From Nanobdellota archaeon (GTDB taxonomy: Archaea > Nanobdellota > Nanobdellia > Pacearchaeales > GW2011-AR1), in assembly GCA_013329055.1 (NCBI GenBank), contig DUKY01000016.1:4559-68558 (forward strand): a stretch of DNA of 64,000 nucleotides. Direction: 5' to 3'. Below are positions 11,141 through 63,348 of this stretch, piece by piece. A model generated the notes under the pieces. The model saw only the letters and a list, made by a program, of their open reading frames with translations. It did no database searches and was not told where the DNA came from. Each line of letters begins with the position of its first letter. Position 1 is the first letter of the stretch. A program made the translations under genes and the position numbers.

Positions 11141-11142
11141 AT

Positions 11143-11781: not shown

Positions 11782-11835
11782 AGAATTTAAATTAATTGAA
11801 AGATTATAAAATTATTGTTAAATTTTAATTTTTTA

Positions 11836-12084: not shown

Positions 12085-12088
12085 CTTT

Positions 12089-12331: not shown

Positions 12332-12396
12332 TTGTATACAAAAGTAGATTTTATAAATATTTCGTTTAATTGAAATAAATAGTGAAGATTCATCAA

Positions 12397-16374: not shown

Positions 16375-16378
16375 AAGT

Positions 16379-16888: not shown

Positions 16889-16953
16889 AAAATTCGAGAA
16901 GAGATAGTTATTTATAAATCTTAGTTTAATACAAAATAATCCCAAAAGAAAAC

Positions 16954-17808: not shown

Positions 17809-17931
17809 ATAAGTTTAAGAGATTGATTATTTTTAAAACTATTTATTTATAATTTAAAATTAACTAATTTTTACAAGATCTTAACCAAAATTTATAAACA
17901 AGAAACGCCAAGTTTTATTAAAGATGGAATA

Positions 17932-18134
17932 ATTCAAAATCAAACTGTGCCTTCGCACAGAAAACTATTAAAGATTTTGAATACAAAGAAAATCTTGGAA
18001 AAAATTTTCTAGCATTTCCATTTCAGGAGAAATGAAAATACAAAGAAAATCTTGGAAAAAATTTTCTAGCATTTCCATTTCAGGAGAAATGAAAATACAA
18101 AGAAAATCCATAAAAAAGGAGAAATGAAAATATG
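17932..18134. repeat. hairpin element plus 57-bp tandem repeat containing an SD/ATG-like motif
   Basis: attcaaaatc..ctgtgccttcgcacag..gattttgaat, then a 57-bp unit x2 plus a partial (17980-18108); ggagaaatgaaaata occurs three times. Confidence 0.85.
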
Positions 18135-18905
18135 AATAAAAGAGGGCAAATGACTATATTTTTAATTATTGGGATAATCCTTATTGCTATTGCAATAATT
18201 TTATTTTTTTTGAACAAACAAGATATTTTAAATCCAAATCAAATAGAGGTAGATAAAAAAGAATTTTTACAGACATGCATTGAAGAACGAATTACAGAAA
18301 CAGTTAATTTAATTGCAATACAAGGCGGATCAATTAATCCAACTTTAAAGAAAACATATGATTTAGAAGATGGACTTGGAAAGAAAAATATTTCAATATT
18401 ATGTTATAATCAAAATTTTTACACGCCATGCATTAATCAGGAACCAATGCTGGTTAATCATGTTAGAGAGGAAATTGAAAAAAATATTAGTCAAGATGTT
18501 AAACAATGTTTTGATGATTTGGTTATAAGTTTAAATAAAAAAGGATTTGAAACAAGTGCATTATACAAGGGTTTTGAAATTAAATTACAACCTGATAAAG
18601 TTATTTTAGAGATTTATGGAGAGATTACAACTACCAGAACAGATGAAACTAAAAAGGAAAAAGATTTTGAAATTATAGTTAAAAGCAAGTTCTATAATTT
18701 AATAATTGTTGCTCAAGAAATACTCAGCCAAGAAGCAAGATTCTGTCATTTTGAAAATCTTGGTTATATGTTATTTTATAAAAATTTTAATATTGATAAA
18801 TTCAAAACAGGAGATTTTTATACATTTTATACTGTAGAAGACAGAGACAGCCAAGAAAAATTCAGGTTTGCAATAAGGGGGTGTGCAATTCCTCCGGGAA
18901 TATAA
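18132..18905 (+). CDS. class III (type IV pilin-like) signal peptide protein, paralog 1
   Basis: MNKRG|QMTIFLIIGII; conserved C...QGG...LCY...CINQEPML...RGCAIPPG. Confidence 0.8.
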   Translation: MNKRGQMTIFLIIGIILIAIAIILFFLNKQDILNPNQIEVDKKEFLQTCIEERITETVNLIAIQGGSINPTLKKTYDLEDGLGKKNISILCYNQNFYTPCINQEPMLVNHVREEIEKNISQDVKQCFDDLVISLNKKGFETSALYKGFEIKLQPDKVILEIYGEITTTRTDETKKEKDFEIIVKSKFYNLIIVAQEILSQEARFCHFENLGYMLFYKNFNIDKFKTGDFYTFYTVEDRDSQEKFRFAIRGCAIPPGI

Positions 18906-18909
18906 AGAG

Positions 18910-37770: not shown

Positions 37771-38286
37771 ATGAACACAGAGAAATTAATTCTTTTTGAA
37801 GGGAAAAAAATTAGAAAAATTTTACATAATGAAGAATGGTATTTTTCAGTAATAGATGTAATTTTTGCACTTACTAATTCAGATAACCCACGAAATTATT
37901 GGAATATGCTAAAAAGTAGAGAATTCCAAAATGGGATTCAGTTGTCCACAAATTGTGTACAGTTGAAATTAGAATCTTCTGATGGAAAATTTTATTCTAC
38001 AGATTGTGCAAATAAAGAGAATTTTATGAAAACCTTAAAATTCTCTAACTTTCTTTTTGAAGGCAAGCAAAGCTTGCATGAGATTTATCAAAAAGAAAAT
38101 AAAGAGAATTTTATACCAACCCAAAAATTCTCTAACTTCCTTTTTGAAGGCAAGCAAAGCTTGCATGAGATTTATCAAAAAGAAAGCAAAGAAGGAATTT
38201 TTAGAATTATTCAATCAATTCCTTCAAAGAATAGCAATAATATTATTGTAAATAATGAAAAGATTATCAAAGAGGTGGCAAAATGA
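37771..38286 (+). pseudogene. Bro-N-domain protein, truncated, with 2x87-bp in-frame palindromic insert
   Basis: FEGKKIRK..EWYFSVIDVI.ALT.S..PRNYW..LK..QLKL.SSDGK.Y.TDCAN-[insert]-KEGIFRIIQSIPS, then diverges. Confidence 0.8.
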
Positions 38287-52100: not shown

Positions 52101-53597
52101 TCTAGTTATTCATCGTGGATGAATAGTTCAACGATGTATTTTGCTCCTCCGAGTTGTGAGATTCAAAGTATTACTGAATTAACTAATACTTCTTATCAGG
52201 ATGTTGATGGTAATTATATTTGGTATTATAATCCATCTTACGATGGTTCTGTTCAGATTTTAGTAAATACTACTGATACAGATGTTGATACTATAAGTTT
52301 CCCAACTACTGTTAGTGCAGGTGCTAACGACACTACTGACCCATATTCAGTAGATTATACTTGGGATACTGCAGATACTTATAATCAAACTACTACGATA
52401 ACAATTAATGATTCTTCGGGTAACCTTGGAAATTGTTCATTTGATATTTATAGAGATAGTGGTGCACCGATATATCACGGATATAATTATGTTGGTGGAG
52501 CTAGTTATGTTAATGGTACTGATTATTGGGTTACAGGGGGAGATAATTTTTTAATTAAGGTTAATCATTCTGATGTTGGTTCAGGTGTATGGAGACAATA
52601 TTTTGGATATAATAAAGATGACTGCAATCCAAATGGATGTGGTGGTTCGCCTTATGAAATTAAATCTTATAAAGATACTGTTTATGCAGATTGGTATGTA
52701 AATAATAGTTATTTAGATATTATTAGTGCAACTTGTAATATTTCTGAATGTTATGATAGTTTGAATGTTAGTAATGTTTGGAATACTACTGTTGCTTTGA
52801 TTAGTGAAGATTGGGATTTTAAGATGCATACTTATGAGTATGATATGGTGACTAGAGGTTTAGGATATACTGATATGGGCATTTGGTTAAAGGTTGATAA
52901 TTCTGCTCCTATTTCAAATGGTACAACGCAAAGTTCATCATATGTTAATGATTTTAATGTTAGTACTTATGATTTTGATAATCGGTCAGGTTTAAGTTCA
53001 TGTAGTTATAGAATTCATAATGGCAGTGCTTATTCTTTAGGATGGACTTCTAGAACTTGTAATGCGAATATTAATGTTGATATTTCAAGTTATTGTGCTT
53101 CTGGGCAAAACTGCACTATTGTGTTAAATAGCACAGATCAGGTTGGACTTACAAGCAGTACTTTTAATGTTAGTGTTTCTATTACAAGTGTTTCGTCTGG
53201 AGCAGGATTTTTTATTACTAATAATACCAATGGAAATGTTGCATTGTTTGATAAAAATGGTAATTTTTATCTTAAGGGCAAGAAAAATTCTAATCAGGGT
53301 ACTTTGAATGCTCCGGCAAATTCTTTTGTTCTGCAAAATTCTTCAGGAACTACTATTGCTTATGTTAATTCAACAGGTTCTTTATTTATGAGGGGAAGCA
53401 TTTCTGAGGGTTCAAGTTTGACCGGAAAAACTAGTTCAAATTTAGAGTTTAAGAATTCAACAGACAATTTAATTGGATTTTTTGATAACCAGGGTAATTT
53501 AAAACTTAAGGGATATGTTGTGGAAAATTATTTTAGTTATATTTTAAGTTTGTTTAACAGAATGGGATTATTTCAATCTGGAGGTTATAGAAAATAG
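40170..53597 (+). CDS. giant secreted protein with 8 RCC1/BLIP-II-like 7-bladed propellers, each within an Ig-like domain
   Basis: Signal peptide; 8 Y(Q/T)WYNG blocks mostly about 1.41 kb apart, each followed by HTCGIRANDSRVLCWG repeats (7 counted in modules 1-2); C-terminal triple F..N..G..(V/I)A..D..GN..L(K/R)G motif. Confidence 0.92.
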   Translation: MKYKKVLVDMKNKLLILTLVALTIIGVVIAQNQSLEEELASLEEELVNAGFDWLVNATIDENLDTSTIEVFTQNGNETLAVFENIQEEKFYKIYLTNLNGTQDVFDLRINGSIEFDQILDPAPTMSTVKINSTTNASNENLKGYCNATDADGDDLAYQYQWYNGSTVYLNGTLFKEGTISTGNLHTCGIRANDSRVLCWGEGANGRLGDEGTGDNTVPNITTDNSPYSSVSAGYQHTCGIRQNDSRVLCWGYGDFGQLGDGNSTSHNVLNPNLTTDSSAYSSVSAGYIHTCGIRANDSRVLCWGYGGSGRLGDGDSTSHNVSNPNLTTDSSAYLSVSSGISSHTCGIRANDSRVLCWGDSGSGKLGDGQASTDRTSPYPTTDNSSYSSVSAGYSHTCGIRTNDSRILCWGQGDYGQLGDGSTSAHYSSDPNVTTDSSAYANINAGDYHTCGIRANDSRVLCWGTGDDGQVGDGTSTERTNPTLTSDTSAYSSISAGGDNALGRSHTCGIRASDGRVLCWGDGGYYQTGDGGTTDNTVPTLTSDSSPYKKGFSSGEEILISILGNSFLNKNNIWKLSCRAYDFTEYSSWMNSSTVTISDGRSPIMVINSPQNITYTTSTIIFNITATDESGVGVCKYSLDGATNKSMTNITASQWNATNSSMTNQTHTVKFYCNDSLGNMGDTQTIFRINNNPIVQTATINSTTNKSNESIKGYCNATDTDGDDLIYQYQWYNGSTVYYNGTLFKEDSISASFEYTCGIRASDSRVLCWGEGSYGRQGDGSTTDNLVPTLTSDISPYISVSTGYQHTCGIRVNDSRVLCWGESLYGRLGDGQNGVDVLNPNLTTDNSSYISVSAGYYFSCGIRANDSRVLCWGDSLYGQLGDGQTTFDMNTSTLTTDTSAYSSISAGYQHTCGIRVNDSRVLCWGETANGRVGDGQTTTDRTSPYQTTDSSAYSSVSAGSLHTCGIRANDSRVLCWGESLYGRLGDGQNGVDVLNPNLTTDSSAYTSISAGMRHTCGIRTNDSRILCWGEGEYGRLGDGNNSIHNVVSPNITTDSSVYSSVSAGDYHTCGIRASDGRVLCWGQSDYYQLGDGQNTLDRNESTLTTDTSAYKKGFGSGNETLVSILGNAFIKKGEIWKMGCRAYDFNGYSSWMNSSTITILSGPPTMATVKINSTTSTTSDNINGYCNATDKDGDDLAYQYQWYNGSTVYFNGTIFKDGSISTGYYFSCGIRANDSRVLCWGQGLYGQLGDGQNTINRTSPYLTTDISSYKMISAGYYHTCGIRANDSRVLCWGETANGRVGDGQTTTDRTSPYQTTDTSAYSSISAGLLHTCGIRTNDSRVLCWGESLYGRLGDGQNGVDVLNPNVTTDNSSYFSVSAGGYHSCGIRANDSRVLCWGYGLYGQVGNSGTTDNLIPNVTTDTSSYKSASAGYYHTCGIRNNDSRVLCWGRGDWGNLGDSEITNNLVPNLTTDTSPYTIANAGYVHTCGIRTNDSRVLCWGYGANGQVGDGETTNNLVPNITTDSSIYSSVSPGGYHTCGIRANDSRVLCWGYGTYGQLGDGNNASHSVLRPNITTSSSPYKKSFSSSEEILVSILGNAYLNVGENWSLGCRSYDFTDYSSWMNSSILTINFPPVIQTVKINSTTNKSNENIKGYCNATDTDGNDLIYNYTWYNGSTAYINGTLFKEGTISAGYGHSCGIRANDSRVLCWGEGSNGRQGDGQVTDNLIPTLTTDISAYSSVSAGGYFHTCGIRANDSRVLCWGDSAYGQIGDGQITTDRTSPYQTTDTSAYSSISAGDFHTCGIRANDSRVLCWGESANGRLGNGQTTPDQSNPNVTTDTSAYSSISAGEQHTCGIRANDSRVLCWGDSAYGQLGDGQITTDRTSPYLTTDSSAYSSISAGGIHTCGIRTNDSRVLCWGESLDGRLWDGQDGVNVLNPNLTTDSSAYTSISAGGYHTCGIRQSDSRVLCWGYSAYGALGSVSGGLTTDSSAYLSVSAGGDSVRIRGHTCGIRANDSRVLCWGESENGRLGDGQDGVNVWNPNLTTDSSAYKKGFFSGEEVLISTLMSSFITAGESWKFSCSAYDFIEYSSWVNSTAMTILSSPPTMSTVKINSTTNTKNDPIYGYCNATDEESDDLIYQYQWYNGSTVYFNGTLFKDGSISAGWYHTCGIRQNDSRVLCWGRGDNGRLGDGITANHNNSNPNITTDSSAYSSVSAGYTHTCGIRSNDSRILCWGYGLWGNLGDGETTDNSNPNVTTDFSAYLSISAGYTHTCGIRANDSRVLCWGRGNYGTLGDGSTSTHNTLNPNLTTDTSAYSSVSAGYVHTCGIRTNDSRVLCWGYGNFGHLGDGSTSAHNVGNPNITTSTSPYSSISASAGYHHTCGIRANDSRVLCWGYGNNGQLGDGSATAHNNSNPNVTTDSSSYSSISAGGYHNCGIRANDSRVLCWGYGTQGQLGDGAGAGRPNPTLISGSSIYSSVSAGSYYHTCGIRANDSRVLCWGYGNDGELGDGSTASHNVLNPNITTDSSPYKKGFSSSEEVLVSILGNAYINAGQNWSLGCRSYDFSSYSDWMNSSVMTINTAPVMQTVKINSTTNTSTESIKGYCNATDFEGSDLGYQYQWYNGSTLSINGTIFKEGSISAGWYSACGIRANDSRVVCWGYGAFGVLGDGSTTDNLIPNVTADTSAYKSVSVGDSHACGIRQNDSRVLCWGRCSNDACGDGQTTIDRYTPYPMTDSSEYLMISASNYYTCGIRANDSRVLCWGWGDRGEMGDGISADHTNPIATLTTDTSGYKFIITGDDSSTHSCGIRANDSRVLCWGEGSDGQLGDGDNSSHNNPNPNITTDSSAYTSIALGYLHTCGIRANDSRVLCWGNGYAGQLGDGIIASHEVGNPTLINDASPYLIITSGYENTCGIRQSDKRVLCWGSGTLGGIGNGNNVDVGTPTLTLDSSAYSRITGGFEYYCGIRTNDSRVLCWGYGDYGALGDSSTAVHNTLFPNLTVDNSSYVKGFSSGNETLVSTLASSFIKKGENWKISCRAYDFTSYSSWMNSTAMTILNGPPVMATVKINSTTNTKNDSIYGYCNATDKDEDDLAYQYQWYNGSTVYFNGTIFKEGSISTGHYFSCGIRANDSRVLCWGQGLYGQLGDGQNTINRTSPYLTTDISSYSSISTGYFHACGIRANDSRVLCWGRGEWGNLGDSEITNNLVPNLTTDSSAYSSVSAGGYHTCGIRANDSRVLCWGYGNFGELGDSETGNNLRPNITTDSSSYSNINTGGYHTCGIRTNDSRVLCWGYGLYGQRGDGQTTNTQSNPNVTKDTSAYSSISAGEVHTCGIRANDSRVLCWGESQYGRLGDTQNGVDVLNPNLTTDSSPYTIANAGYLHTCGIRQNDSRVLCWGYGANGQLGDGENPNNLIPNITTDSSIYSSVSPGGYHTCGIRANDSRVLCWGFGTYGQLGDGSNASHNTLNPNLTTDSSPYKKGFSSSEEVLVSILGSAYLNVGQNWSFGCRAYDFTNYSSWMNSSILIVNTAPIMRTVKINSTTNSSTENIKGYCNATDFEGSNLAYGYTWYNGSTVYFDGTYFRKNSLALGENHVCGIRANDSRVLCWGDSAYGQLGDGQTTTDRASPYLTNDSLEYLGISAEKEYTCGIRANDSRVLCWGKCDFGRCGDGNLTTHNNLNLTLTTDTSAYASISVGEDHVCGIRANDSRVLCWGECDSGKCGDGNISNHDVGNPNLTTDTSAYSIIAAGGYHTCGIRANDSRVLCWGLGGNGELGNGSISDSGNPQITSDNSAYSMITTGYILTCGIRKSDSRVLCWGYCDQYGTCGDGNFIDHNNLNPTLTTDSSSYSTVKTNDMYACGIRNSDSRVLCWGYNYYGTLGDGTTTDKADPTLTTDNSAYLDVNMNYHHTCGIRANDSRVLCWGNNWYGELGNGTTSSYTSYSPRVTVDTSPYISDLSVQGNETLVSILGSAFLNAGETWKFGCRAYDFSSYSSWMNSSTMYFAPPSCEIQSITELTNTSYQDVDGNYIWYYNPSYDGSVQILVNTTDTDVDTISFPTTVSAGANDTTDPYSVDYTWDTADTYNQTTTITINDSSGNLGNCSFDIYRDSGAPIYHGYNYVGGASYVNGTDYWVTGGDNFLIKVNHSDVGSGVWRQYFGYNKDDCNPNGCGGSPYEIKSYKDTVYADWYVNNSYLDIISATCNISECYDSLNVSNVWNTTVALISEDWDFKMHTYEYDMVTRGLGYTDMGIWLKVDNSAPISNGTTQSSSYVNDFNVSTYDFDNRSGLSSCSYRIHNGSAYSLGWTSRTCNANINVDISSYCASGQNCTIVLNSTDQVGLTSSTFNVSVSITSVSSGAGFFITNNTNGNVALFDKNGNFYLKGKKNSNQGTLNAPANSFVLQNSSGTTIAYVNSTGSLFMRGSISEGSSLTGKTSSNLEFKNSTDNLIGFFDNQGNLKLKGYVVENYFSYILSLFNRMGLFQSGGYRK

Positions 53598-53708
53598 GAG
53601 ATAAAATTATTAAAGGCTTACTGATATATAATAATATAAAAATTAGAGGTTAAATGATAAATAAAAAAATTTATAAAGACAAAAAGTCTAAAAATAATAT
53701 GATACTCC

Positions 53709-53742
53709 CCGGTGATCCTAAGGGGTTGCCGGATGATTTTTC
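53709..53742 (+). promoter_or_regulatory. hairpin motif copy 1 (orphan; NYN gene apparently lost)
   Basis: ccggtgatcc-taag-gggttgccgg-atgatttttc, 39 nt after TTTATAAA at 53670. Confidence 0.65.
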
Positions 53743-53886
53743 TAATGCTATTATTTTTGTGGATAATGCTTCTAAGGGTATTTATAATGTTGTTTTGAGT
53801 GGGGTTAATTTATATGGAGAAAAAATGAATAACAAAATTGGTGTGTTGAGTTTAAAATTGAAAGGGGGAAGTTTTAAAAGTCTTAG

Positions 53887-54096
53887 GTGCTAAAAGAGAT
53901 TATGGAAAATGTTAGTTTCGATATACTGAATAAGAAGATTATTGATTTAGCAAATGCTGTTGAGGAGATTAAGATTCAGATAAATCTTTTAAAAAATAAT
54001 TCTTTAAACATTTATGATTCTGAATTAAGAGAAGAGTTAAATGAGTGGGATAAATTGAGTACACAAACTTTAGAAAACTTTGAATCTAAGATATGA
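53887..54096 (+). CDS. antitoxin partner of MazF-like toxin
   Basis: Small acidic ORF (EELNEWDKLS..L.NFE) with ATGA overlap to mazF. Confidence 0.65.
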   Translation: MLKEIMENVSFDILNKKIIDLANAVEEIKIQINLLKNNSLNIYDSELREELNEWDKLSTQTLENFESKI

Positions 54097-54419
54097 AAAA
54101 AGGAGAGATATTTAATGTTAACTTAATTGGAAGGGGGCATGAACAAAAAGGTTTTAGACCAGCAATTGTTTATTCTAGTGTTATTGCAGGAATTGTAGCA
54201 ATAATTCCTTTAACTAGCATTGAAAAGGCATTAAAGTATGATGGTTCTTTAAAAATTATAAAATCCAATACTAATGGATTAAATAGTGATTCTGTCGCTT
54301 TGATTTTTCACATAAAAACAATTGATGCAAGATTCCTAAAGAATAAAATTGGTGAATTAGATGAAAAGAATTTGCATTTAATAAATAATAAATTAAGAGA
54401 ATTTTTAGATCTAAAATGA
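54093..54419 (+). CDS. mazF: MazF/PemK toxin
   Basis: GHEQKGFRPAIV..IIPLTS..NGLNSDSVAL..IKTID.R..IGEL. Confidence 0.88.
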   Translation: MKKGEIFNVNLIGRGHEQKGFRPAIVYSSVIAGIVAIIPLTSIEKALKYDGSLKIIKSNTNGLNSDSVALIFHIKTIDARFLKNKIGELDEKNLHLINNKLREFLDLK

Positions 54420-54572
54420 TAAATAAAGAGGTGATAAAAATACAAATGAATTTTTTACTCTTTGTAATTGGTATTGTTTTACTTCTTAGTTTTGTTTCTG
54501 CTATTCCTCAGACTTTTAGTATTCACGGTAAATTAGAAAATAATGCGGGTAGTCCGCTTGAGGGGACTTATA
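54416..54572 (+). pseudogene. relic 5' end of the tail-fibre-like gene
   Basis: Signal peptide plus SAIPQTFSIHGKLENNAGSPLEGTY, nearly identical to the N-terminus of 55266-58805. Confidence 0.88.
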
Positions 54573-54616
54573 GTAAAATTTATAAATCTTCACTACATAT
54601 TTTTAATAACATGTTC

Positions 54617-54650
54617 CCAGTGATCTTTTTAGGTCACTGGATGACTTTTC
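54617..54650 (+). promoter_or_regulatory. hairpin motif copy 2 in the NYN gene leader
   Basis: ccagtgatct-tttt-aggtcactgg-atgacttttc, 38 nt after TTTATAAA at 54579. Confidence 0.65.
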
Positions 54651-54681
54651 ATTCTAGTAAATTTTTGGAGATTTTGAAATA

Positions 54682-55269
54682 ATGGCAAATTCTACTCTTG
54701 TTTTTGTAGATGCAGGATTCTTATCTGAATTATCTAAACATTTTGGTGAAGGTAAACATTTAAAATTTGATTATCTTAAATTTTTTAAATTTCTGGCAGA
54801 AAAAAGAAAACTAAATCTAAAGAAGGTTTTTTATTATACTGCTCCACCTTTTCAGTCTAATACTCATAATAAAAAAGAGGTTTTAAGAAAGAAGGGTTAT
54901 GATAGTTTTATTAACAAAATTAAAAAAGACCTTTTAATTCAGATTAGAGAAGGGAGGGTACAAAAATTAATGAGTGTTTATGGAGAGGAATTTAATCAAA
55001 AAGGAGTTGATACTTTAATGACTTTAGATTTGGTTTTAGTGAAAGATAAATTTCCAGAGATAGATGAACTTATTTTAATAACTAGTGATACTGATTTTTG
55101 TCCTGTGATTAAAGAAATCAAAAGATTTGGGATTAAAACTATTTTATATACTTATATTGAAAGGAAAAGAGATTCTAAATTTTTTCTTTCTCATCACTTA
55201 ATTGACTGTTGTGATAAAGTTGAATATCTAAAAAAGGAGGATATGATAAAATTTTCGTTTAAAAAATGA
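54682..55269 (+). CDS. NYN-domain (LabA/DUF88, PIN-like) nuclease
   Basis: VFVDAG, FYYTA, QKGVDTLMTLD, LITSDTDF.P. Confidence 0.9.
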   Translation: MANSTLVFVDAGFLSELSKHFGEGKHLKFDYLKFFKFLAEKRKLNLKKVFYYTAPPFQSNTHNKKEVLRKKGYDSFINKIKKDLLIQIREGRVQKLMSVYGEEFNQKGVDTLMTLDLVLVKDKFPEIDELILITSDTDFCPVIKEIKRFGIKTILYTYIERKRDSKFFLSHHLIDCCDKVEYLKKEDMIKFSFKK

Positions 55270-58200
55270 TGAATAAAAAAAGAGGTTTGTTGGTTCTTTG
55301 TATGATTCTTTTACTTGGGAGTTTAGTTTCTGCTATCCCTCAGACTTTTAGCGTCCATGGTAAATTAGAAAATAATGCAGGTAGTCCGTTAGAAGGAACT
55401 TATAATATGAGTTTTAATATTTATACGACTTATACTGGTGGAAGTGCGTCGTGGACTTTGTCAAATCAGGATGTGACGACTGATTCAAATGGTATTTATA
55501 ATATTGTTTTGACAAATGTTAATTTGAATTTTTCTACACAATATTATTTGGGTGTTGCTGTTGGTAATGATTCTGAAATGAGTCCGAGGATTAATTTGAC
55601 TTCTTCGCCTTATGCATTTGAGGCACAAAATGTTAGTGTGTCTGGGGTGAGGTTTAATTCTAATGTTGATTTTGGAACTGATTATAATTTTACTTTTGAT
55701 TCTGGGACTTTGTTTGTTGACGGGAGCAAAGGGTATGTGGGGATTGGGACTACGAGCCCACAAGCAATTTTCCATATTCAAACTACTGGGACTGGAAACA
55801 AAACTGGTTTAATTGTGGGTAGAAATACGGCAAACACCAACGATATTTCCAGTATAGTCTTTAATTCTGCGGATTTGGGAGACCAGGGTGCGATTGATTC
55901 TATAATTTTAAGTGGTTCTACGGCTGATTTAGCATTTAGAACTCGTACCGCAAGTGCATTAACGGAAAAGGTCAGAATAACAACAACCGGCTACGTCGGA
56001 ATCGGCACGACGAATCCCACGAGTAAACTTGGCATTAAGGATACAGCGACAAATGGAGCATTAACTTCTACTTTGAGATTATGGCAAGAAGGTTCTGGAA
56101 GTGGAACGGGAGCATCTATTGAACTTGGCTTTGCTGATAACTCGTTAAGTTCAGCGAGTATCGGCGGATTTTATGATGGAGCAGGAAGAGGGTTGTCTTT
56201 TAACACAGCTCTTTCAGGAGTGGCATTATCGGAAAAGGTGCGAATCACAAGTGCTGGCAACGTAGGTATCGGCACAACAACACCACAACAAAAACTTCAT
56301 GTAAACGGAAGTATTCTTGCTAATGGGACCATTAATGCTACAAGTGATGTTTGTATTCAAGGGGGGGCTTGTTTGTCCACAGTTAGTTCAAGTGCGGGGG
56401 GGTGGACGAAAACAGGTACACAGGTTGCTTTGACAACTGCGACAGATAATGTAAGTATTGGTTCAACGGATTTTTTTGTGGATAATAGTAAGGGCTATGT
56501 GGGTATTGGGACGACGACGCCTAATGCAACATTACATATTGTAAAACCTGGAGTATCAGGGGATAATGTAACTATAATTCATTCAGGTGGAGGGGCTAAT
56601 GATTTAATGTTGATAGGGAATAGTGGCTATCCTTATGCTGTATTTTCTGAAGCTAACACGAATGACCCCGGTAACTTGCAATTAAAATATGGAGGGAACA
56701 CAACAATTAGCTTACTTGCCAATGGAAATACTTATTTTAATAATGGCAACGTAGGTATCGGCACAACAACACCCCAACAAAAACTTCACGTTAACGGAAG
56801 TATTCTTGCGAATGGGACGATTAATGCAACTACAGATTTATGTATTCAAGGGGGGGCTTGTTTGTCCACAGTTAGTTCAAGTGCGGGGGGGTGGACGAAA
56901 ACAGGTACACAGGTTGCTTTGACAACTGCGACAGATAATGTGAGTATTGGTTCTACGGATTTTTTTGTAGATAACAGCAAGGGGTATGTCGGTATTGGGA
57001 CGACGAGTCCGGAAGGAAGACTAGAGGTCTCAAATTTAGATACAGACACAGCTAATACTCTCTTGATTAGAAAACCAACTGAAGCTACTGGAACAGATGT
57101 TGGAGGTTTAAGATTTGTTACGGGTTCAGGGGCAATTAGCTCATCAAACGCAATAGCAGGAATAGAAGCAGACATTACGCAAGCAAACCCAAGTTCATTA
57201 AAAGGAGAATTAACTTTCAGTACAAACAGAGGGGATTCATATACTGAAGCTATGAGAATTGATGACACCGGTTACGTCGGTATCGGCACAACAGCCCCCG
57301 CAACTCCACTCGATATAGATACTGGTTCAAATTCTTTAGGTTTACGATTGAGGGGATTAGCAGAAACAGTTGAAATAGGAGATATGTATATGGGTACTAA
57401 TGGAGAAATGATTATTTCTACCGTTGGAGGAAGTGGTGGTCAAGCATTTATAGATTTGAGATCAGAAGATGATAACTATGGATTAATACTTAGACAATCA
57501 AATGGAACAGGAATATCTCCTTACGCTAACTTTTATGTTACTGATGCTGCTACAGATTATCTAAATATTGTTGTTAATGTTGCACAAGGTACCAAAGGAT
57601 TAGTTATTGATGAAAATGAGAACGTCGGAATCGGCACAACAACCCCACAACAAAAACTTCATGTAAACGGAAATATCCTCGCGAATGGAACGATTAACGC
57701 AACTACAGATTTATGTATTCAAGGGGGGGCTTGTTTGTCCACAGTTAGTTCAAGTGCGGGGGGTTGGACTAAAACAGGAACACAGGTTGCATTAACTACT
57801 GCGACAGATAATGTGAGTATTGGTTCAACGGATTTTTTTGTGGATAACAGCAAGGGGTATGTAGGAATTGGGACGACGAGCCCTGCGACACAGCTACATG
57901 TTGTAAACCGTGGATTGTTTGACACTGCGGGTGTTGGAACCGCTAGTGTTGTTTCGTTGGGAGTTGGTAGTGAAAACACAGGATTTACATGGAACACTGG
58001 TAATGCTCTTGGTATTAGCACTAACGGTGGTGAAAGAATTAGGATTGATAATACAGGCAGCGTCGGCATTGGGACAACAAGCCCCGGAGCAACTTTAGAT
58101 ATAAATGGTGCAAATGATGTTACACAGCTCCGTATACGAGATGATGATGCTAGCCCAACAGTTGCAACAGTAAATATATCCAGGTCAGATAATTTAGCAA

Positions 58201-58805
58201 TAAACAATTACAACAATTCTCTTTTATATTTAAGAGATCATTCATATAATGTCCCCCTTTATATAACAGACAATAACTTCAATCCTTTATTTATAGTTAA
58301 TGGTTCAGGAAATGTCGGTATCGGAACTACGAGTCCGGGGAATCTCTTAACAGTTGGGGAACCAGCTTCAGCTAAGAACAATGTAAATGCTACCTTAAAG
58401 ATTCAGGGAATGAGTGTTTCGGATGGAGGGGGAGGTTATTATGGAAGTTATGGTGGTGCATTACTTAGTGCTACCAACGAATTTACGACTGGTGCGAGAA
58501 TGTATTTGATTACTAACGCATTGGGACTAAATAAATTTGCTATAATAAGAAGTGCAGACGTTGCAACTACTCCCACGCTGGGAACTAATGGGGTCATAAC
58601 TTCTGGGACAGCTGATTTCGTGATGGATAATACAGGCAACGTCGGTATCGGCACAACAGCTCCTACGAAAAAGTTTGAAGTTAATGGAACAGCTGGGGCA
58701 TTTAATGTTAATCCAGATAATGCTGGAGGTCCTTTACTTAATACTACTTCTGGAAATGTCACAATTACTTCTGCTGGTGGAAGTGTTATTATAAGATTAG
58801 GTTAA
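55266..58805 (+). CDS. secreted tail-fibre/trimeric-adhesin-like protein with VGIGTTxP repeats
   Basis: Signal peptide; N-terminal domain ending PRINLTSSPYA; about 11 (N/Y)VGIGTTxP motifs; three near-identical about 86-aa blocks. Confidence 0.85.
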   Translation: MMNKKRGLLVLCMILLLGSLVSAIPQTFSVHGKLENNAGSPLEGTYNMSFNIYTTYTGGSASWTLSNQDVTTDSNGIYNIVLTNVNLNFSTQYYLGVAVGNDSEMSPRINLTSSPYAFEAQNVSVSGVRFNSNVDFGTDYNFTFDSGTLFVDGSKGYVGIGTTSPQAIFHIQTTGTGNKTGLIVGRNTANTNDISSIVFNSADLGDQGAIDSIILSGSTADLAFRTRTASALTEKVRITTTGYVGIGTTNPTSKLGIKDTATNGALTSTLRLWQEGSGSGTGASIELGFADNSLSSASIGGFYDGAGRGLSFNTALSGVALSEKVRITSAGNVGIGTTTPQQKLHVNGSILANGTINATSDVCIQGGACLSTVSSSAGGWTKTGTQVALTTATDNVSIGSTDFFVDNSKGYVGIGTTTPNATLHIVKPGVSGDNVTIIHSGGGANDLMLIGNSGYPYAVFSEANTNDPGNLQLKYGGNTTISLLANGNTYFNNGNVGIGTTTPQQKLHVNGSILANGTINATTDLCIQGGACLSTVSSSAGGWTKTGTQVALTTATDNVSIGSTDFFVDNSKGYVGIGTTSPEGRLEVSNLDTDTANTLLIRKPTEATGTDVGGLRFVTGSGAISSSNAIAGIEADITQANPSSLKGELTFSTNRGDSYTEAMRIDDTGYVGIGTTAPATPLDIDTGSNSLGLRLRGLAETVEIGDMYMGTNGEMIISTVGGSGGQAFIDLRSEDDNYGLILRQSNGTGISPYANFYVTDAATDYLNIVVNVAQGTKGLVIDENENVGIGTTTPQQKLHVNGNILANGTINATTDLCIQGGACLSTVSSSAGGWTKTGTQVALTTATDNVSIGSTDFFVDNSKGYVGIGTTSPATQLHVVNRGLFDTAGVGTASVVSLGVGSENTGFTWNTGNALGISTNGGERIRIDNTGSVGIGTTSPGATLDINGANDVTQLRIRDDDASPTVATVNISRSDNLAINNYNNSLLYLRDHSYNVPLYITDNNFNPLFIVNGSGNVGIGTTSPGNLLTVGEPASAKNNVNATLKIQGMSVSDGGGGYYGSYGGALLSATNEFTTGARMYLITNALGLNKFAIIRSADVATTPTLGTNGVITSGTADFVMDNTGNVGIGTTAPTKKFEVNGTAGAFNVNPDNAGGPLLNTTSGNVTITSAGGSVIIRLG

Positions 58806-58829
58806 TTTTCAAAGAAAAGTTTGAAGTTA

Positions 58830-59014
58830 TAGAGAATTGATTTTTAGAGAATTCTTTAAAAAATCAATTCTCTAAGAAGACATTTGAACCAACGGAAATT
58901 GAGGAAAATTATTTATTCAAATGTCTCTATACAGAATTGTGGGGGATTACAATTCTCTAAGAAGACATTTGAACCAACGGAAATTGAGGAAAACTATTTA
59001 TTCAAATGTCTCTA
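58830..59014. repeat. tandem palindromic units (85-bp period)
   Basis: caattctctaagaagacatttgaa...ttcaaatgtctcta at 58865-58929 and 58950-59014, each preceded by a gaattg..caattc hairpin. Confidence 0.85.
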
Positions 59015-59370
59015 ATGGAACTGCTGGGGCATTTAATGTTGATCCAAATAATGCTGGGGGTCCTTTACTTAATACTACTTCTGGTTTAGAGATTCATTGA
59101 TATGAATCTCTAATAATCTTTTTGAAGGCAAGCAAAGCTTGCATGAGATTAAACAAAAAGATGATAATGTTACAATTACTTCTGCAGGTGGAAGTGTGAT
59201 TATAAGATTAGGTTAATGATGTTACAATTACTTCTGCTTACTCGCAACTTCGCACAGTGGAAGTGTGATATAGAGATTCATTGATATGAATCTCTAATAA
59301 TCTTTTTGAACAACGGCACAGCAAAGCTTGCATGAGATTAAACAAAAAGATCATTATTAGATGGGGTTAA
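59014..59370 (+). pseudogene. two relic copies of the fibre gene 3' end interrupted by palindromic inserts
   Basis: NGTAGAFNVDPNNAGGPLLNTTSG-[80 bp]-NVTITSAGGSVIIRLG* (to 59216); VTITSA-[ins]-GSV-[ins]-IIRWG* (to 59370). Confidence 0.88.
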
Positions 59371-59427
59371 TTATTTAAATTTGAATTGTGTGATAAGATA
59401 TATAAATATAATTTCTTTTTAACATAA

Positions 59428-59721
59428 ATGGAATTAACTAAAGAATTAATATTAACAACGATAAAAAAAAATAAAAGAAAATTAAGTGAACATAATGTAA
59501 AAAAAATTGGATTATTTGGTTCATTTGTGAAAGAACAACAAAAATCCACAAGTGATATTGATATTTTAATTGAATTTACAAAAGTGAATATTGATAAATA
59601 TCTTTATGTTTTAAATTTATTAGAAAAATTGTTTAATAAAAAAGTTGATTTGGTTATTGAAAAAAATTTAAAACCGGAATTAAAATATGTAATAAAAGAA
59701 GCTGAATATGTCAAAATATGA
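59428..59721 (+). CDS. MNT nucleotidyltransferase antitoxin
   Basis: IGLFGSFVK.QQ...SDIDILIEF..KKVDLV. Confidence 0.9.
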   Translation: MELTKELILTTIKKNKRKLSEHNVKKIGLFGSFVKEQQKSTSDIDILIEFTKVNIDKYLYVLNLLEKLFNKKVDLVIEKNLKPELKYVIKEAEYVKI

Positions 59722-60052
59722 TTTATATCTAAATGATATTCTTAGAGCAATTAATTCAATTGAAACATCCATTCTAAAAAAGACATTTAAAGATTTTGAA
59801 TTGGATAATAATTTAATTGATGCCTCGTCCATGAGACTTCAAATAATTGGTGAATCAGTAAATAAATTATCTCCAATACATAATAAATATAAGAATGTTA
59901 ATTGGAAAAAATACCTTCAAACAAGAAATATAATTAGTCATGCTTATTTTGCAATTGATTTAGATATTATCTGGTCGATAATAAAAAAAGATATTCCTAA
60001 ACTAAAAAAAGAAATTCAAGAGATAATACAAAAAGAAAATTTACTGGAATAA
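59708..60052 (+). CDS. HepT/DUF86 HEPN toxin
   Basis: LQIIGES..W....TRNIISHAYF.ID..IIW. Confidence 0.9.
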   Translation: MSKYDLYLNDILRAINSIETSILKKTFKDFELDNNLIDASSMRLQIIGESVNKLSPIHNKYKNVNWKKYLQTRNIISHAYFAIDLDIIWSIIKKDIPKLKKEIQEIIQKENLLE

Positions 60053-60061
60053 ATTAATTAA

Positions 60062-60106
60062 ACAATTACCAGTAAAGGTGGAAGTGTTATTATTATATGG
60101 GGTTAA
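60062..60106 (+). pseudogene. third relic of the fibre gene 3' end
   Basis: TITSKGGSVIIIWG* followed by the same ttatttaaatttgaattg flank as at 59371. Confidence 0.8.
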
Positions 60107-60136
60107 TTATTTAAATTTGAATTGATTAGGAGCTTT

Positions 60137-60535
60137 ATGAAAAAAGAAAGATTTTTATTGTATGATTCAGGTAAAGAGAAAGTTAGTATTGAAGTTTTTT
60201 TCAAAGATGAAAATATATGGTTGACACAAAAATTAATGGCTGAGCTTTTTGGAGTTGATAGAAGTGTAATTACAAAGCATTTGAGAAATATCTTTGAAGA
60301 TCAAGAACTAAACGAAAGTTCAGTATGTGCAAATTTTGCACATACTGCTAAAGATAAAAAAATTTATACTACTAAGTATTATAATCTTGATGCAATTATT
60401 TCTGTGGGGTACAGAGTGAATTCTCAAAAAGCAACTAAATTTAGAATTTGGGCGACAAAAAAATTAAAAGAATACATCTTGAAAGGGTTTGTTTTGAATG
60501 ATGAACGACTAAAAAATTCTATAATTATTCTTTAA
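60137..60535 (+). pseudogene. RhuM-family protein, N-terminal fragment
   Basis: WLTQKLMAELFGV..ITKHL.NIF..YNLDAIISVGYRVNS..ATKFRIWAT..LKEYILKGFVLNDERLK, then ends against the convergent gene. Confidence 0.8.
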
Positions 60536-61927
60536 TCTCCCAATGTCCCCCTTTATCGGGACCTATTCTCTTTATTTTCTTCTGACTCTTTAATTGGTTT
60601 AAATTAAACTTGATTCCATCTTCGGTAATTCCTATCTTTTTTGCTAGTTCTCTTCTTGATATCTTTGGATTTTCTTTAATTAACTCCAATATTTTCTGGG
60701 TAGTTTTCTGGGTAGTTTTCTGGGTAGTTTTCTGGGTAGTTTTCTGGGTAGTTTTCTGGGTAGTTTTCTGGGTAGTTGTTTCTCCAGCCATTTTACCGAG
60801 CTCTTCTTGAGTTGGTCTAAATAAAGTAACAGCGAAGAATTTACCAAACTGAAATACTGGCTCTTTTAATCCTGCTTTCTTCATTTCTCCCTTAATTCTG
60901 CCTATCCCACTCCCTATATGTTCAACCAATTCTAATTTATTGAATAAACTAAAAATTGTAGGATTCCTAGATAAGCTTCTCGTTCCAAATTCCGACTCTT
61001 TAATAATTAATCCCCCCGGGTTACTTATCTCAACCCTATCATCAAAAATATCCACCTGAATAAAAGCTCCTTTTTCAGAATAATCTCTATGAGTCATAGC
61101 ATTAATGATGCACTCCTTTAATGCTTTATCTGGAATTTCTAACATTTCTTTTCTAGGACCAAATCCCTCCATTCTATAAACTATTTTCAAATTGGTATAA
61201 AGAAACTTTAAAACTTCTTCATAATTAGAAGAAATATCTAATTTGAAATCTTTTTTATCTAAAATAAATTGTTTATCTAATCCCTTAAATAAAACACAGG
61301 TTACGATTGCTTGAGAGATAAACTTCTCAACATTATCGCAAAAGAATAATACTCCCGCATTCTTGAATTTTCTATTTTCAGTGAGAACTCCCATATTCTT
61401 TAGAATAGTCTCATCAGGAATAACTCTGCTTAATTTTGCCTTATTCAAATAAGAAGTAAGCTTTGTTTTATCATAGCCATTATCAAAACTAAATGTTGGA
61501 TGGATTGCTTCATCAAAAAGGATCTTTCTCTCCTTGTTAAAGAATTCCCTAATTTCATCTGTTGATAATTTTTGAGAATTGCTTCCTTGCCTTAGATAAA
61601 AACCTGCTGAGCATCTGTAAGGTTTGTTTATTCCTTCATCAACATCTACGATAAGAATATTATCTATTGTCTCTAAGTTAATTACAATAGAAGGATCGCA
61701 CCCCTTGCTAAATCCTGAATTTCAGATTTCAGCTTATTTGTTATTTGAATACCCTTAACTTTACCATGATCATCTACTCCAATAAAGATTCTTCCTCCTT
61801 CGGTATTCGCAAAAGCTACAATTTCTTTACCTAAATTTTTAGAATCATAATTCTCTTTAAACTCTAATTTCAATCCTTCTCCCTGTTTTAATAAAAATTC
61901 AAACTCTTTTTTATCCATAATTTCCAT
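60525..61927 (-). pseudogene. AlbA_2 + HATPase-like + wHTH paralog, frameshifted
   Basis: The two track ORFs join with +1 nt at the G4 run (61701-61704): ..DLAR|CDPSIVINLE..NKPY; (TTQK)x7 linker. Confidence 0.85.
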
Positions 61928-62061
61928 AAGATTCCTATGTTTTAAAGTTTAACTAAAACAAGCTTCATGTAGAATCCATTGACATATGTCCCTTGATTGC
62001 ACAGGTTAATAGTTAAAAAGTTAAAGAAAAATTTAAATAGTTTTGAGGAGATTATCTGAGT

Positions 62062-62265
62062 ATGGATTTTAATATAATTATTGAAAAAGGTGAAGATGGA
62101 TATCTGATTTCAGAAGTAGTTGAACTTTCAGGATACCATACTCAGGCAAAGGATATGAATGAACTTATCACACGAACAAAAGAAGCTATTTCTTTATGTC
62201 TGAAAGAAGAAGGTGTTGAATTTGAGAAAACTAATTTTATCGGAGTTCAGGAAATAGAGGTGTGA
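62062..62265 (+). CDS. hicB: HicB-family antitoxin (orphan)
   Basis: IIEKGEDGYLISEV.ELSG.HTQA..M.EL....KEAI.L. Confidence 0.82.
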   Translation: MDFNIIIEKGEDGYLISEVVELSGYHTQAKDMNELITRTKEAISLCLKEEGVEFEKTNFIGVQEIEV

Positions 62266-62266
62266 T

Positions 62267-62782
62267 ATGATTTTCATTGTCTTTCTTTCTGCAATCGCAA
62301 TCCTATTTTTTTTCATCGTCAGTATTTCTATGAAAAATATTAAAAATATGAAGATACTTTTTATTATATTTAGTATATTTACTATTATTCCATTACTTGT
62401 CCTAATGTCTTCCGTTATTAACTTAGCTATGGACAGCACTCTTTTTAATATGGGCGATGGCTTGGGTTATATAACTCTAATGTTTTTCTTTGGCCCTATG
62501 TTTTTAATCTCACTCATTTTGTATTTTATTAATTTTTATTTTTTGCAAAAAACAATAAAAGATGAAAAAGTCGTTGCTAATTGGAATTTTTATAAATATG
62601 TAAACATAGCAACAGGCTTTAGTATAATGTTTGGTATAGTGTTTACTTTATTTGTGGAAAATGGAGGATTTGACGAGGTATTAGAAAATATTTTTATAAT
62701 CATTATAGCTTCTGTAATAATATACTTACCCTTTGGGAAAATTTTTAGAATAATAAATTCGTTCGAAAAAAGATATTCCTAA
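62267..62782 (+). CDS. membrane protein, unknown function
   Basis: About 5 TM segments; its stop lies inside the duplicated HepT terminus. Confidence 0.6.
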   Translation: MIFIVFLSAIAILFFFIVSISMKNIKNMKILFIIFSIFTIIPLLVLMSSVINLAMDSTLFNMGDGLGYITLMFFFGPMFLISLILYFINFYFLQKTIKDEKVVANWNFYKYVNIATGFSIMFGIVFTLFVENGGFDEVLENIFIIIIASVIIYLPFGKIFRIINSFEKRYS

Positions 62783-62831
62783 ACTAAAAAAAGAAATTCA
62801 AGAGATAATAAAGGAAGAGAACCTTCAATAA
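62766..62831 (+). repeat. relic copy of the HepT 3' end
   Basis: 45 bp identical to 59984-60028, then KEENLQ* instead of QKENLLE*. Confidence 0.9.
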
Positions 62832-62943
62832 AAAATTAAATATTTAAATAAAAGAAAAAAATTAATTCTTTTTAAAATATCAGTTATACGAAAAAATCGT
62901 GCAACTGAAATTAGAATTTTTGATGGAAAAACTTGACAGTTAT

Positions 62944-63348
62944 TTATGAAGATAATTTAATTAATTCTTCTGTTGTTAATACTGGAATTAAAGATTGTTC
63001 TTTTAAGTGCTTGTCATTTGACCAAATTACAGAATTGGTTGAGAGTGCTAAAGCTAAAAAATCTATGTCTTTTTCATCTGAAATTGACTTCTTTGCAGTT
63101 TTGAAGAAATGCTTATATTCTAATTCATTGATAAATCTAACTGATTCTTCAATCTGTTTTAATCTTGATTTAAATTCTTGCAAAGAAAGTTTTGACTTTA
63201 GCAAACAAACCTTTTTATGTTTCTCAAATTCTGATTTTATAAATTCAGGAGCAATAAATTTAGAATTTAGTGAAAAGAATAAAAAAGATGCTGTTGAATT
63301 TGGGTTCATCAATGAAAATAGTATGTTGCTATCCAATACTAATTTCAT
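62944..63348 (-). CDS. PIN-domain (VapC-like) toxin
   Basis: LVLDSNILFS..D.KDIDFLALAL...IWSNDKHLK. Confidence 0.88.
   Translation of the reverse strand: MKLVLDSNILFSLMNPNSTASFLFFSLNSKFIAPEFIKSEFEKHKKVCLLKSKLSLQEFKSRLKQIEESVRFINELEYKHFFKTAKKSISDEKDIDFLALALSTNSVIWSNDKHLKEQSLIPVLTTEELIKLSS

Follow-up and report, generated by a model that had tools for sequence, protein, structure and literature searches.

Layered gene-end relics, with toxin–antitoxin genes between them, around a surface-fibre gene of a small groundwater archaeon

Introduction

Parts of the literature on Rhs, CDI (contact-dependent growth inhibition) and type VI secretion system (T6SS) arrays describe a recurrent way in which genes change their ends. 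The conserved part of a long gene for a surface or secreted protein acts as a homology anchor, an incoming 3′ end with its neighbours replaces the resident one, and truncated ends accumulate downstream, all in one orientation; the process needs no recombinase of its own, and stacks can move en bloc. For the T6SS loci of Vibrio cholerae, passages of Kirchberger et al. (2017, PMC5361080) propose sequential displacement through homology-facilitated illegitimate recombination, cite the same idea for Rhs and discuss the movement of whole arrays en bloc. Here we describe scars of this type in a 64,000-nt stretch of archaeal DNA (the window; positions 4559 to 68558 of contig C15 of genome G000), in which a live gene for a tail-fibre-like surface protein (the fibre gene, 55266–58805) stands between partial copies of its own 5′ and 3′ ends, interleaved with toxin–antitoxin and nuclease genes.

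The fibre locus resembles these arrays in all of those traits. The initial annotation had likened its relics to orphan Rhs/CdiA termini, and the likeness stands for displaced allelic ends with cargo; the recombination mechanism behind it is one that we infer. As far as those accounts go, the locus differs in that its ends are near-identical alleles of a conserved 45-residue terminus rather than divergent toxin domains, in that its cargo consists of unrelated type II toxin–antitoxin and nuclease genes rather than cognate immunity genes, and in that it is also stacked at its 5′ end, has an archaeal host and carries hairpin insertions in the relics. No displaced end is matched to its neighbour as a toxin is to its immunity gene: the termini are non-toxin and the cargo is self-contained. 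Integrons and clusters of attC sites lacking integrases (CALINs) in Archaea, as set out in sections of Ghaly et al. (2022, PMC9668308), offer a second comparison, with small units in one orientation that are rich in toxin–antitoxin genes, a repeated separator and reported occurrence in Nanoarchaeota/DPANN. In contrast to what those sections describe, the separators of the fibre locus are coding gene ends of varying length, with no attC hairpins and no IntI found. Integrative elements such as e14 in icd of Escherichia coli insert at a gene's 3′ end and supply a substitute for it; this substitute keeps the gene intact, and the old end is left as a pseudo-end on the far side. Unlike e14, the fibre locus has inserts of 0.7–2.7 kb without integrase or phage genes, in several layers and at both gene ends. 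Homology-facilitated illegitimate recombination itself, reportedly worked out in transformable bacteria by de Vries & Wackernagel in 2002, Prudhomme et al. in 2002 and Meier & Wackernagel in 2003, would explain constant terminal and variable inner boundaries by one anchor and one illegitimate joint.

The fibre locus is a well-documented, two-ended, multi-layer archaeal case of a known type of scar, not a new mechanism. Particular to it are the archaeal host, layers at both gene ends (three at the 3′ end), recurrence across genera, a relic allele that is live elsewhere, relic divergence confined to third codon positions, and hairpins at fixed sites. It would mean that ordinary recombination, with the conserved ends of a hypervariable surface-fibre gene as its anchor, lets tiny archaea that depend on a host and have few or no recognisable enzymes of mobile elements acquire, stack and exchange genes for defence and toxin–antitoxin systems. 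The locus ties the swapping of surface-protein modules, including an allele in a relative that bears a diversity-generating retroelement (DGR), to the turnover of addiction and defence genes; with several alleles and several public groundwater data sets that contain it, it is also a test bed for population genomics.

The host is an uncultured, very small, small-genome (DPANN-like) groundwater archaeon. Its assembly holds 1.19 Mb in 26 contigs, has a GC content of ~28% and is 84.9% complete, and archaeal Rfam models fit its rRNA genes (small subunit, 1226 bits; the start of the large subunit also). At least half of the sampled 31-mers from 53600–63000 occur in 15 of 20 listed public runs from 12 studies, all groundwater and soil metagenomes; as index shares only, these figures weakly support the presence of DNA of this stretch in several samples.

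Copies of both fibre ends surround the live gene

The locus was probably built by serial terminal displacement together with repeat-mediated recombination in a mosaic surface-fibre gene, with the toxin–antitoxin genes as hitchhikers. Five observations carry this view: the repeats, their allelic nature, polymorphism between strains, recurrence in other genera and the fact that no recombinase or attC signatures were found. The recombination pathway and the direction of each event are what we infer from them.

The live gene matches two PHROG families of tail fibres, phrog_9942 (E 4e-44) and phrog_18345 (E 6e-39), with nothing above threshold in Pfam or NCBIfam, and has a GC content of ~42%, against ~26% in its flanks. 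Its relatives in viral contigs are only distant (28–39% identity), and nothing therefore points to a provirus at this locus. The gene and the copies of its ends are listed below; the comparison sequence L013, 21.5 kb of a 180-kb metagenome contig, comes from a syntenic close relative, and P0145 is a database protein discussed in the next section.

53767–53811, plus strand: fibre fragment, codons ~73–87, fused to an NYN relic; missing from L013
53825–53886, plus strand: short fibre-start relic with the region upstream of the MazE-like gene; common to L013 9405–9471
54416–54575, plus strand: fibre 5′ relic, made up of the start codon, a signal peptide different from the live one and 26 codons of the mature part
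55266–58805, plus strand: live gene (1179 aa) for the tail-fibre-like surface protein; encodes a signal peptide and contains 280-nt repeats
58815–58829, plus strand: relic 1, piece a′, 15/15 to the gene; longer version in L013
58830–59014, plus strand: element X, 185 nt, a perfect hairpin and two 84/85-nt tandem units, inserted at TA
59015–59085, plus strand: relic 1, piece b′, 94% to the gene, 24/24 residues as in the P0145 end
59086–59165, plus strand: element Y, 80 nt, two hairpins
59166–59217, plus strand: relic 1, piece c′ with the stop codon, 94% to the gene, 16/16 residues as in P0145
59220–59370, plus strand: relic 2, the last ~50 nt of the fibre gene, split by a fragment of element Z and by element Y′
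60056–60106, plus strand: relic 3, a decayed fibre 3′ end with an in-frame stop and two replacements near its end

The repeats at both ends, which the initial annotation had reported, are real. Blastn of the fibre gene against its own flanks found at least two copies of the 5′ end upstream: 54459–54575 matches gene positions 55295–55407 (83% over 117 nt, E 4e-29) and 53767–53811 matches 55481–55525 (80% over 45 nt, E 3e-6). On the 3′ side, 59013–59084 matches 58682–58753 (94%, E 2e-27), 59166–59216 matches 58755–58805 (94%, E 3e-17), 59219–59238 matches 58756–58775 (95%, E 0.004) and 60077–60106 matches 58776–58805 (87%, E 1e-4); the 15/15 match of 58815–58829 to 58669–58683 has an E of 0.05 taken alone. 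Relic 1 is a full copy of the last ~137 nt of the gene, in the three pieces listed (58815–58829, 59015–59085 and 59166–59217); its start at 58815 corrects the one in the initial annotation. Relic 3 keeps 75% identity over 52 nt, or 87% over 30 nt.

All 3′ copies share their right-hand boundary, ..GGTTAA(T) at the stop codon, which is also simply the conserved end of the gene. Their left boundaries vary, with copy lengths from 16 to ~150 nt and identities of 75–100%, and the open reading frames (ORFs) of the cargo inserts abut the end copies tightly. Displacement fits the locus because of this common boundary, the variable inner boundaries and the tightly abutting cargo. At the same junctions the cargo differs between related genomes, as shown by the block with the NYN gene, the position of RhuM and the cargo of G034, a genome of another genus.

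A displaced end is live in other strains

The C-terminus of the fibre protein (residues 1090–1179) was searched against protein databases, giving 260 proteins at E ≤1e-5, of which the best 120 were considered; statements on live ends of P-numbered proteins come from eight sequences read and three more of one cluster. Many short fibre variants come from one source, may include chimeras of this repeat-rich gene and were given little weight. Relics were translated after elements X, Y and Z had been taken out.

In the window and in L013 alike, relic 1 translates as KFEVNGTAGAFNVDPNNAGGPLLNTTSGNVTITSAGGSVIIRLG with no stop, whereas the live end is ..NVNPDN.. in both strains and differs from the relic type by an N/D swap. 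P0145 (1475 aa; 14 contigs from several sources) ends as relic 1 does: tblastn of its last 200 residues against the window genome returned 24/24 and 16/16 identities on the relic pieces and 93% on the live tail. Together with P0004 and P0005, it joins the window's N-terminus to a relic-type end (type C) preceded by ..GIGTSTPTKKFEV, and the L013 relic retains the matching TPT codons. P0148, an N-terminally incomplete fragment of 534 aa, has the same relic-type end, as does P0147, a fibre fragment of 522 aa whose last residues, ..NTTSGIEIH, belong to a Y-type element at the site where Y cuts relic 1 of the window (..NTTSGLEIH).

At the 3′ end of the stack, relic 3 and RhuM together are 85% identical to L013 18793–19248, where the fibre end is live and RhuM follows it directly, with the same junction as that between relic 3 and RhuM in the window. 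These findings bear out the core of the earlier proposal, that the relics are displaced, once-functional allelic ends with cargo. The narrower expectation that each relic is a live terminus elsewhere holds for relic 1 at the protein level and for relic 3 with RhuM in L013, and fails for the signal peptide of the 5′ relic at 54416–54575 (0/28 database matches).

The differences between relics and gene are mostly silent in part of the locus. Eight codons of relic 1 differ from the gene, six synonymously and two not, and among the 26 codons VSA..GTY of the 5′ relic there are seven synonymous differences and one non-synonymous. The synonymous bias claimed for the relics in general thus stands for relic 1 (6/8) and for this part of the 5′ relic (7/8), and not for relic 3 or the signal-peptide part of the 5′ relic. 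In both strains the relic clade differs from the live clade at three positions only (N14D, D16N and GTT>GTG), and within each strain relic and live copy have a synonymous variant of codon 6 in common. The live tails of window and L013 differ at nine positions, all nine synonymous, and nearby non-coding DNA differs by ~12–13%.

Related strains and genera carry different stacks

L013 is 97% identical to the window in the MazE-like gene, 94% in MazF, 86% in the 5′ part of the fibre gene and 95% in the fibre tail. It begins with an RCC1-repeat protein, a perfect 26-nt copy of the fibre start, MazEF, fibre gene 1 (10001–12145) and a DGR; then come AlbA_2, fibre gene 2 (17950–18837, with the window-type tail), a full RhuM and a fibre-end relic with X and a 60-nt Z; a 96-aa membrane gene, MNT-HepT and a second 96-aa copy follow. 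MazEF, too, is bracketed by fibre-start copies there. L013 lacks the piece 53670–53824 and the NYN block 54576–55262, which has no counterpart at the same site. Relic 1 is common to window and L013, with X at the same site in both, and is older than the split of the two strains.

The window fibre joins an N-terminus like that of L013 fibre gene 1 to a tail like that of L013 fibre gene 2; the single window gene looks like a fusion relative to the two genes of L013.

Two other genera have comparable stacks at their homologue of the fibre gene, G034 at its 3′ end and G005 at its 5′ end. In G034, the only genome with hits (two copies, on one contig) in a pattern scan of genome contigs for the fibre tail, the live tail is followed by a 141-aa gene, MazE/ParE, a PD-(D/E)XK nuclease, HicB/HicA, a decayed tail relic (relic A), HEPN-MNT, and a relic B that is 89% identical to the genome's own live tail; a conserved small membrane gene comes next. 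In G180 the same small membrane gene follows the fibre with no relic between. In G005 the order is a fibre 5′ relic, an NYN leader, NYN and the live fibre, and the relic contains stretches of 73 nt and 27 nt that are 100% identical to the live gene, along with a 63-nt insert.

Two side observations concern the fibre gene itself. P0124, a predicted 554-aa database protein, has NYN residues 1–173 in frame with the fibre from inside its signal peptide, and is either a deletion variant of the NYN–fibre junction in another sample or an assembly chimera. L013:10001–16510 is a complete DGR on fibre gene 1, with a variable region of FGE-sulfatase type (12020–12141), bAvd (12271–12615), a template repeat (12644–12765), a reverse transcriptase (RT; 15419–16510) and a sub-threshold RT-14 RNA match (12762–12911); all 18 mismatches between template repeat and variable region lie at template adenines.

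How the stack may have formed, and the alternatives

In the proposed mechanism, the population would hold interchangeable N- and C-terminal modules of the fibre gene that share short conserved terminal sequences and internal repeats. DNA of a related strain, with another fibre end and its small neighbour genes, would recombine in, anchored by homology to conserved fibre sequence at one junction; the other junction would be illegitimate or lie in a further copy of that fibre end. This would push the resident end outward with its neighbours, to persist in truncated form. From the stage of two end copies onward, unequal homologous recombination could stack, reorder, move en bloc or delete the genes between them. 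The cargo (MazEF, NYN, MNT-HepT, RhuM and HicB) is taken to be hitchhikers that are hard to lose, and dead end copies would afterwards gather small hairpin elements.

Several findings weigh against this account. Relic 1 of the window and relic 1 of L013 differ at eight positions, all of them third codon positions (0/90 first or second, 8/45 third; calculated p ~1e-4 for all eight, with an expected random synonymous share of 0.26–0.30), a pattern not expected of a relic already dead when the strains diverged; the simplest account is that relic 1 has been continually exchanged with live type-C ends of other strains, or converted, and direct selection on it is possible. Relic 1 lies on the inner side of RhuM in the window and on its outer side in L013. 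The layered record of acquisitions that the initial annotation read here is therefore not a simple chronology, and one-by-one displacement is insufficient without en-bloc transfer or unequal crossing-over: the window may have received a block that already contained relics 1 and 2 and MNT-HepT, or end copies may have crossed over unequally. The signal peptide of the 54416–54575 relic is without a live match, since its database matches cover the mature part only. Among ten relatives, the NYN locus has a strong flanking duplication in only one; only P0145 to P0148 derive from sources other than the single variant-rich one; and in a genome that is 85% complete, a recombinase could sit in the missing part or act from another replicon.

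That last point belongs to an explanation by a site-specific recombinase acting in trans, CALIN-like or as an integrase at the fibre terminus, which would make att sites of the end copies and true cassettes of the cargo. Sections of the survey of archaeal integrons (PMC9668308) place integrons and CALINs in Nanoarchaeota/DPANN and give toxin–antitoxin as the commonest annotated cassette function; the cargo units here are likewise small and in one orientation, the 3′ copies have the common right-hand boundary, and the incomplete genome carries an integrase fragment on the same contig. This fragment is the only PF00589 (Phage_integrase) match in the assembled genome: 86 aa of open frame (window 5006–5209), C-terminal, with one in-frame TAA and a longest ORF of 37 aa (5042–5155), reading ..LLRHSFATHLLEHG.. 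and adjoining the gene for translation initiation factor 2 gamma. Integron attC sites are inverted R″/R′ cores of 57–141 nt at the 3′ ends of cassettes. A motif test (no covariance model) found no canonical R″/R′ pairs (RYYYAAC...GTTRRRY, 50–150 nt apart, both strands) in 53600–63000, Pfam scans found no tyrosine recombinase in ten L013 proteins (~4.9–16.5 kb) or in 8.2 kb of G034, the L013 ORFs downstream of ~16.5 kb being judged from translations only, and the 84.9% complete window genome has no RVT_1 (reverse transcriptase), Y1 transposase or TnpB. 'Integrase-free', as the locus had been called, therefore holds in that no intact integrase, attC pair or transposase was found, in a genome of that completeness. 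With left boundaries, lengths and identities that vary as described, copies that are allelic coding sequence live elsewhere, and one duplication that runs 17 nt past the stop into the region upstream of RhuM, we consider such a recombinase unlikely, with some weight left to it by the incomplete genome and the motif-based attC test. Somewhat the same verdict, unlikely, falls on a purely local history in which tandem fibre paralogs were whittled by deletion around small genes resident all along, with no import. The two tandem fibre genes of L013, the window gene made of parts of both, the same kind of fusion in P0011, internal repeats that favour deletion, and P0147 as a long fibre ORF with a Y-cut type-C end all suit it; yet cargo differs at the same junctions in close relatives (NYN, the position of RhuM, MNT-HepT alleles), a relic of the HepT end is of the allele type of C11, another contig of the window genome, and of L013, the relic-1 allele is in P0145 the sole end of a single gene with the window N-terminus, and other genera have the same architecture with different cargo.

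That strain variants of fibre ends were strung together in assembly would be easy to imagine for a metagenome-assembled genome from a population clearly heterogeneous at the fibre gene. But L013, assembled independently, shares the relic, with X inserted at the identical site, and is bracketed in a like manner, the architecture recurs in G034 and G005, relics carry elements of 80–185 nt that are absent from the live gene and are not expected of collapsed or concatenated variants, and the stretch recurs, by the index shares given above, in 15 of the 20 listed runs; an artefact is highly improbable. Programmed variation, with the end copies as a DGR template repeat or as pilS-like silent donors for gene conversion, is very unlikely too. 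It would be in keeping with the DGR on L013 fibre gene 1 (bAvd, RT and 18/18 adenine mismatches), with a coding capacity of relic 1 that is perfect between two strains, and with relic and live copies that co-vary within genomes (identical patches in G005, 89% for relic B of G034, codon 6). Set against these are the lack of an RT in the window genome, the eight tail/relic differences, with A in the relic at two and in the gene at four, the frame-breaking insertions in relics that lie only two residues from the live end, and the fixation of the same three live-versus-relic differences in both strains, which speaks against ongoing diversification. A role as DGR template was rejected on these grounds: no RT, no adenine bias in the tail/relic pair and no diversification.

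Serial displacement with repeat-mediated recombination thus stays the reading that we favour. An extension of it, to which we give a small chance, is that the conserved fibre termini are portable homology arms of recombinase-free cassette exchange across archaeal genera. If so, toxin–antitoxin and nuclease cassettes would spread by travelling with a fibre end that recombines into any fibre-bearing genome, relics would be kept coding-like by continual exchange with live alleles, and elements X, Y and Z, at fixed sites across strains and genera, would belong to the system rather than being debris; the hairpins might block deletion between repeats or mark a silent copy.

Hairpin elements in the relics

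TA stands at both ends of element X, and we read this pair as a target duplication. The L013 relic has a single-unit copy of X at this site, and L013 5522–5693 is a further copy. Element Y is 93% identical to Y′, an 85-nt element (59270–59354) in relic 2, and 89–91% identical to units at window 38042–38096 and 38129–38183. Relic 2 also contains an 18-nt fragment of Z (59239–59256); the full 60-nt Z occupies the same relic site in L013, and a Z-like insert is at the same site in relic B of G034. Within the genome, X and Y are restricted to the window's contig.

Hairpin inserts occur in relics of the window (X, Y, Y′ and the Z fragment), at L013:19870–19956 and 20049–20108, in G034 relic B and as the 63-nt GC-rich insert of the G005 5′ relic, and were not seen in live genes read as DNA (window, L013, G005 and G034); P0147, unlike these, is a protein that ends in a Y-type element. 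In L013, Z sits in the centre of a palindromic target whose halves read ACTTCTGCT and GGTGGAAGT, and the window has a truncated copy.

Bulge–helix–bulge introns were tried as an explanation and rejected. Folded together with flanks of 20 nt, X, Y, Y′, Z and the 63-nt G005 insert show internal hairpins; Z alone has exon–exon pairing, which comes from the palindrome ACTTCTGCT/GGTGGAAGT and has bulges that do not fit, and the Z-like G034 insert is without Z's inner helix. As to an IS200/IS605 or miniature inverted-repeat transposable element origin of X, Y and Z, the genome contains no Y1_Tnp or TnpB. Rfam gave no family at threshold, X yielding only sub-threshold, microRNA-like hairpin matches.

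Units related to Y are found elsewhere. An 86-nt unit forms an eight-copy tandem array between the DGR template repeat and the RT (L013:12950–13660), and two copies lie in the 3′ half of window ORF 37771–38286 (window 38010–38201), whose N-terminal part matches phrog_15286. Each of the 86-nt units forms a hairpin with an AGAGA../..TCTCT base, with no Rfam match.

Genes upstream of the fibre gene

The 5′ cargo comprises MazEF and an NYN nuclease, together with a relic of an NYN gene's 5′ end.

53654–53775, plus strand: NYN gene 5′-end relic with a TATA-like TTTATAAA, a leader hairpin (53709–53732) and ~10 first codons
53887–54096, plus strand: putative antitoxin, 69 aa, in MazE position, overlapping MazF by 4 nt
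54093–54419, plus strand: MazF/PemK toxin (PF02452, E 7e-19)
54576–54681, plus strand: NYN promoter-like TTTATAAA with leader hairpin (54617–54640)
54682–55269, plus strand: NYN-domain nuclease gene (PF01936, E 3e-11), its stop overlapping the fibre start

MazF and NYN each end in an ATGA stop/start overlap with an M(I/M)NK fibre start, confirming what the initial annotation saw. Its outermost fibre relic needs to be divided: 53767–53811 is indeed fibre, whereas 53654–53775 holds the promoter and leader of an NYN gene together with its first codons. The latter is 80% identical over 87 nt to an NYN paralog elsewhere in the genome (G000:C18:142090–142176), also resembles the region upstream of the window NYN, and has a 9-bp hairpin. 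The putative antitoxin is 97% identical to L013 9472–9681, with no Pfam or NCBIfam match, and the first 26 nt of the L013 copy of 53825–53886 equal the live fibre start of L013.

The flanking duplication at the NYN loci of the ten relatives is strong in one, modest in one (33 nt, E 2e-5), weak in one (E 0.009) and absent in seven. NYN as a mobile agent was rejected on the strong duplicates being limited to that one relative and on the C18 NYN copy lying among housekeeping genes. In G005, G111 and G067, NYN lies upstream of a secreted surface protein, so NYN–fibre and MazEF–fibre are recurrent neighbourhoods; MazEF and NYN, adjacent to the fibre in L013, G005, G111 and G067, look like alternative upstream neighbours and not solely imported cargo.

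The NYN leader is itself conserved. TTTATAAA precedes every NYN examined (ten relatives, the window gene, its relic and the C18 paralog), and ~25–35 nt past it a 9-bp hairpin (CCNGTGATC..GGTYRCNGG) is conserved, with GATG and a run of T after it. An alignment of 12 sequences has 95% of cells paired and compensatory changes in two pairs, and the covariation score was matched by 0 of 500 shuffles. The sites lie at window 54576–54681 and 53654–53760 and in relatives L002 and L062–L070. The hairpin may belong to a leader that the NYN nuclease uses for self-regulation.

Genes downstream of the fibre gene

Beyond the 3′ relics the cargo and its remnants are as follows.

59428–59721 (MNT) and 59708–60052 (HepT), plus strand: toxin–antitoxin pair (PF18765/PF01909 and PF01934)
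60122–60535, plus strand: RhuM N-terminal fragment, 137 aa (PF13310, E 4e-27, profile positions 1–70 of 252)
60525–61927, minus strand: AlbA_2/HATPase_c_4/wHTH gene in two pieces, 61682–61927 and 60525–61448 (Pfam)
62062–62265, plus strand: HicB-like antitoxin that lacks a HicA partner; the protein upstream of HicA in G034 is 35% identical (E 3e-6)
62267–62782, plus strand: 171-aa membrane ORF whose end runs into the HepT-end relic
62766–62831, plus strand: HepT 3′-end relic of the L013/C11 allele type

The earlier naming of MazF, NYN, MNT-HepT and RhuM is borne out by Pfam; the HicB-like protein has no Pfam match and the membrane ORF no family match. A PIN/VapB pair lies beyond the genes of the AlbA_2 region. 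MNT-HepT is bracketed by a 36-nt repeat (59353–59388 and 60089–60124, 97% alike) that extends 17 nt beyond the fibre stop. The end of HepT is duplicated, as had been claimed: 59984–60060 and 62766–62842 are 84% identical over 77 nt, with the first 45 nt identical. The HepT relic matches C11:20764–20843 at 89% over 80 nt and L013 21136–21244 at 82% over 110 nt. RhuM is full-length in L013 (336 aa, 18853–19863), as is the AlbA_2 homologue (464 aa, 16563–17957).

The signature of the fibre locus is seen again at another place in the window genome: on contig C11 (G000:C11:20704–21800), an MNT-HepT of the L013 type is bracketed by a 57-nt, 98% identical duplicate of the 3′ end of the neighbouring 96-aa membrane gene; in L013 (20207–21516) two whole copies of that membrane gene bracket MNT-HepT. 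The cassette thus lies at different genomic places in the window strain (C11) and in L013.

Two further observations concern repeats in neighbouring proteins. The linker of the broken AlbA_2/HATPase_c_4/wHTH gene contains a (TTQK)n run, encoded by seven tandem 12-nt units at window 60680–60789, and the L013 homologue has an (NGTL)n run at the corresponding place. Upstream of the whole stack, window 40170–53597 encodes a 4475-aa protein of RCC1-type repeats in about six large modules; its L013 counterpart has only 1191 aa, so this gene has been greatly expanded or contracted between close relatives.

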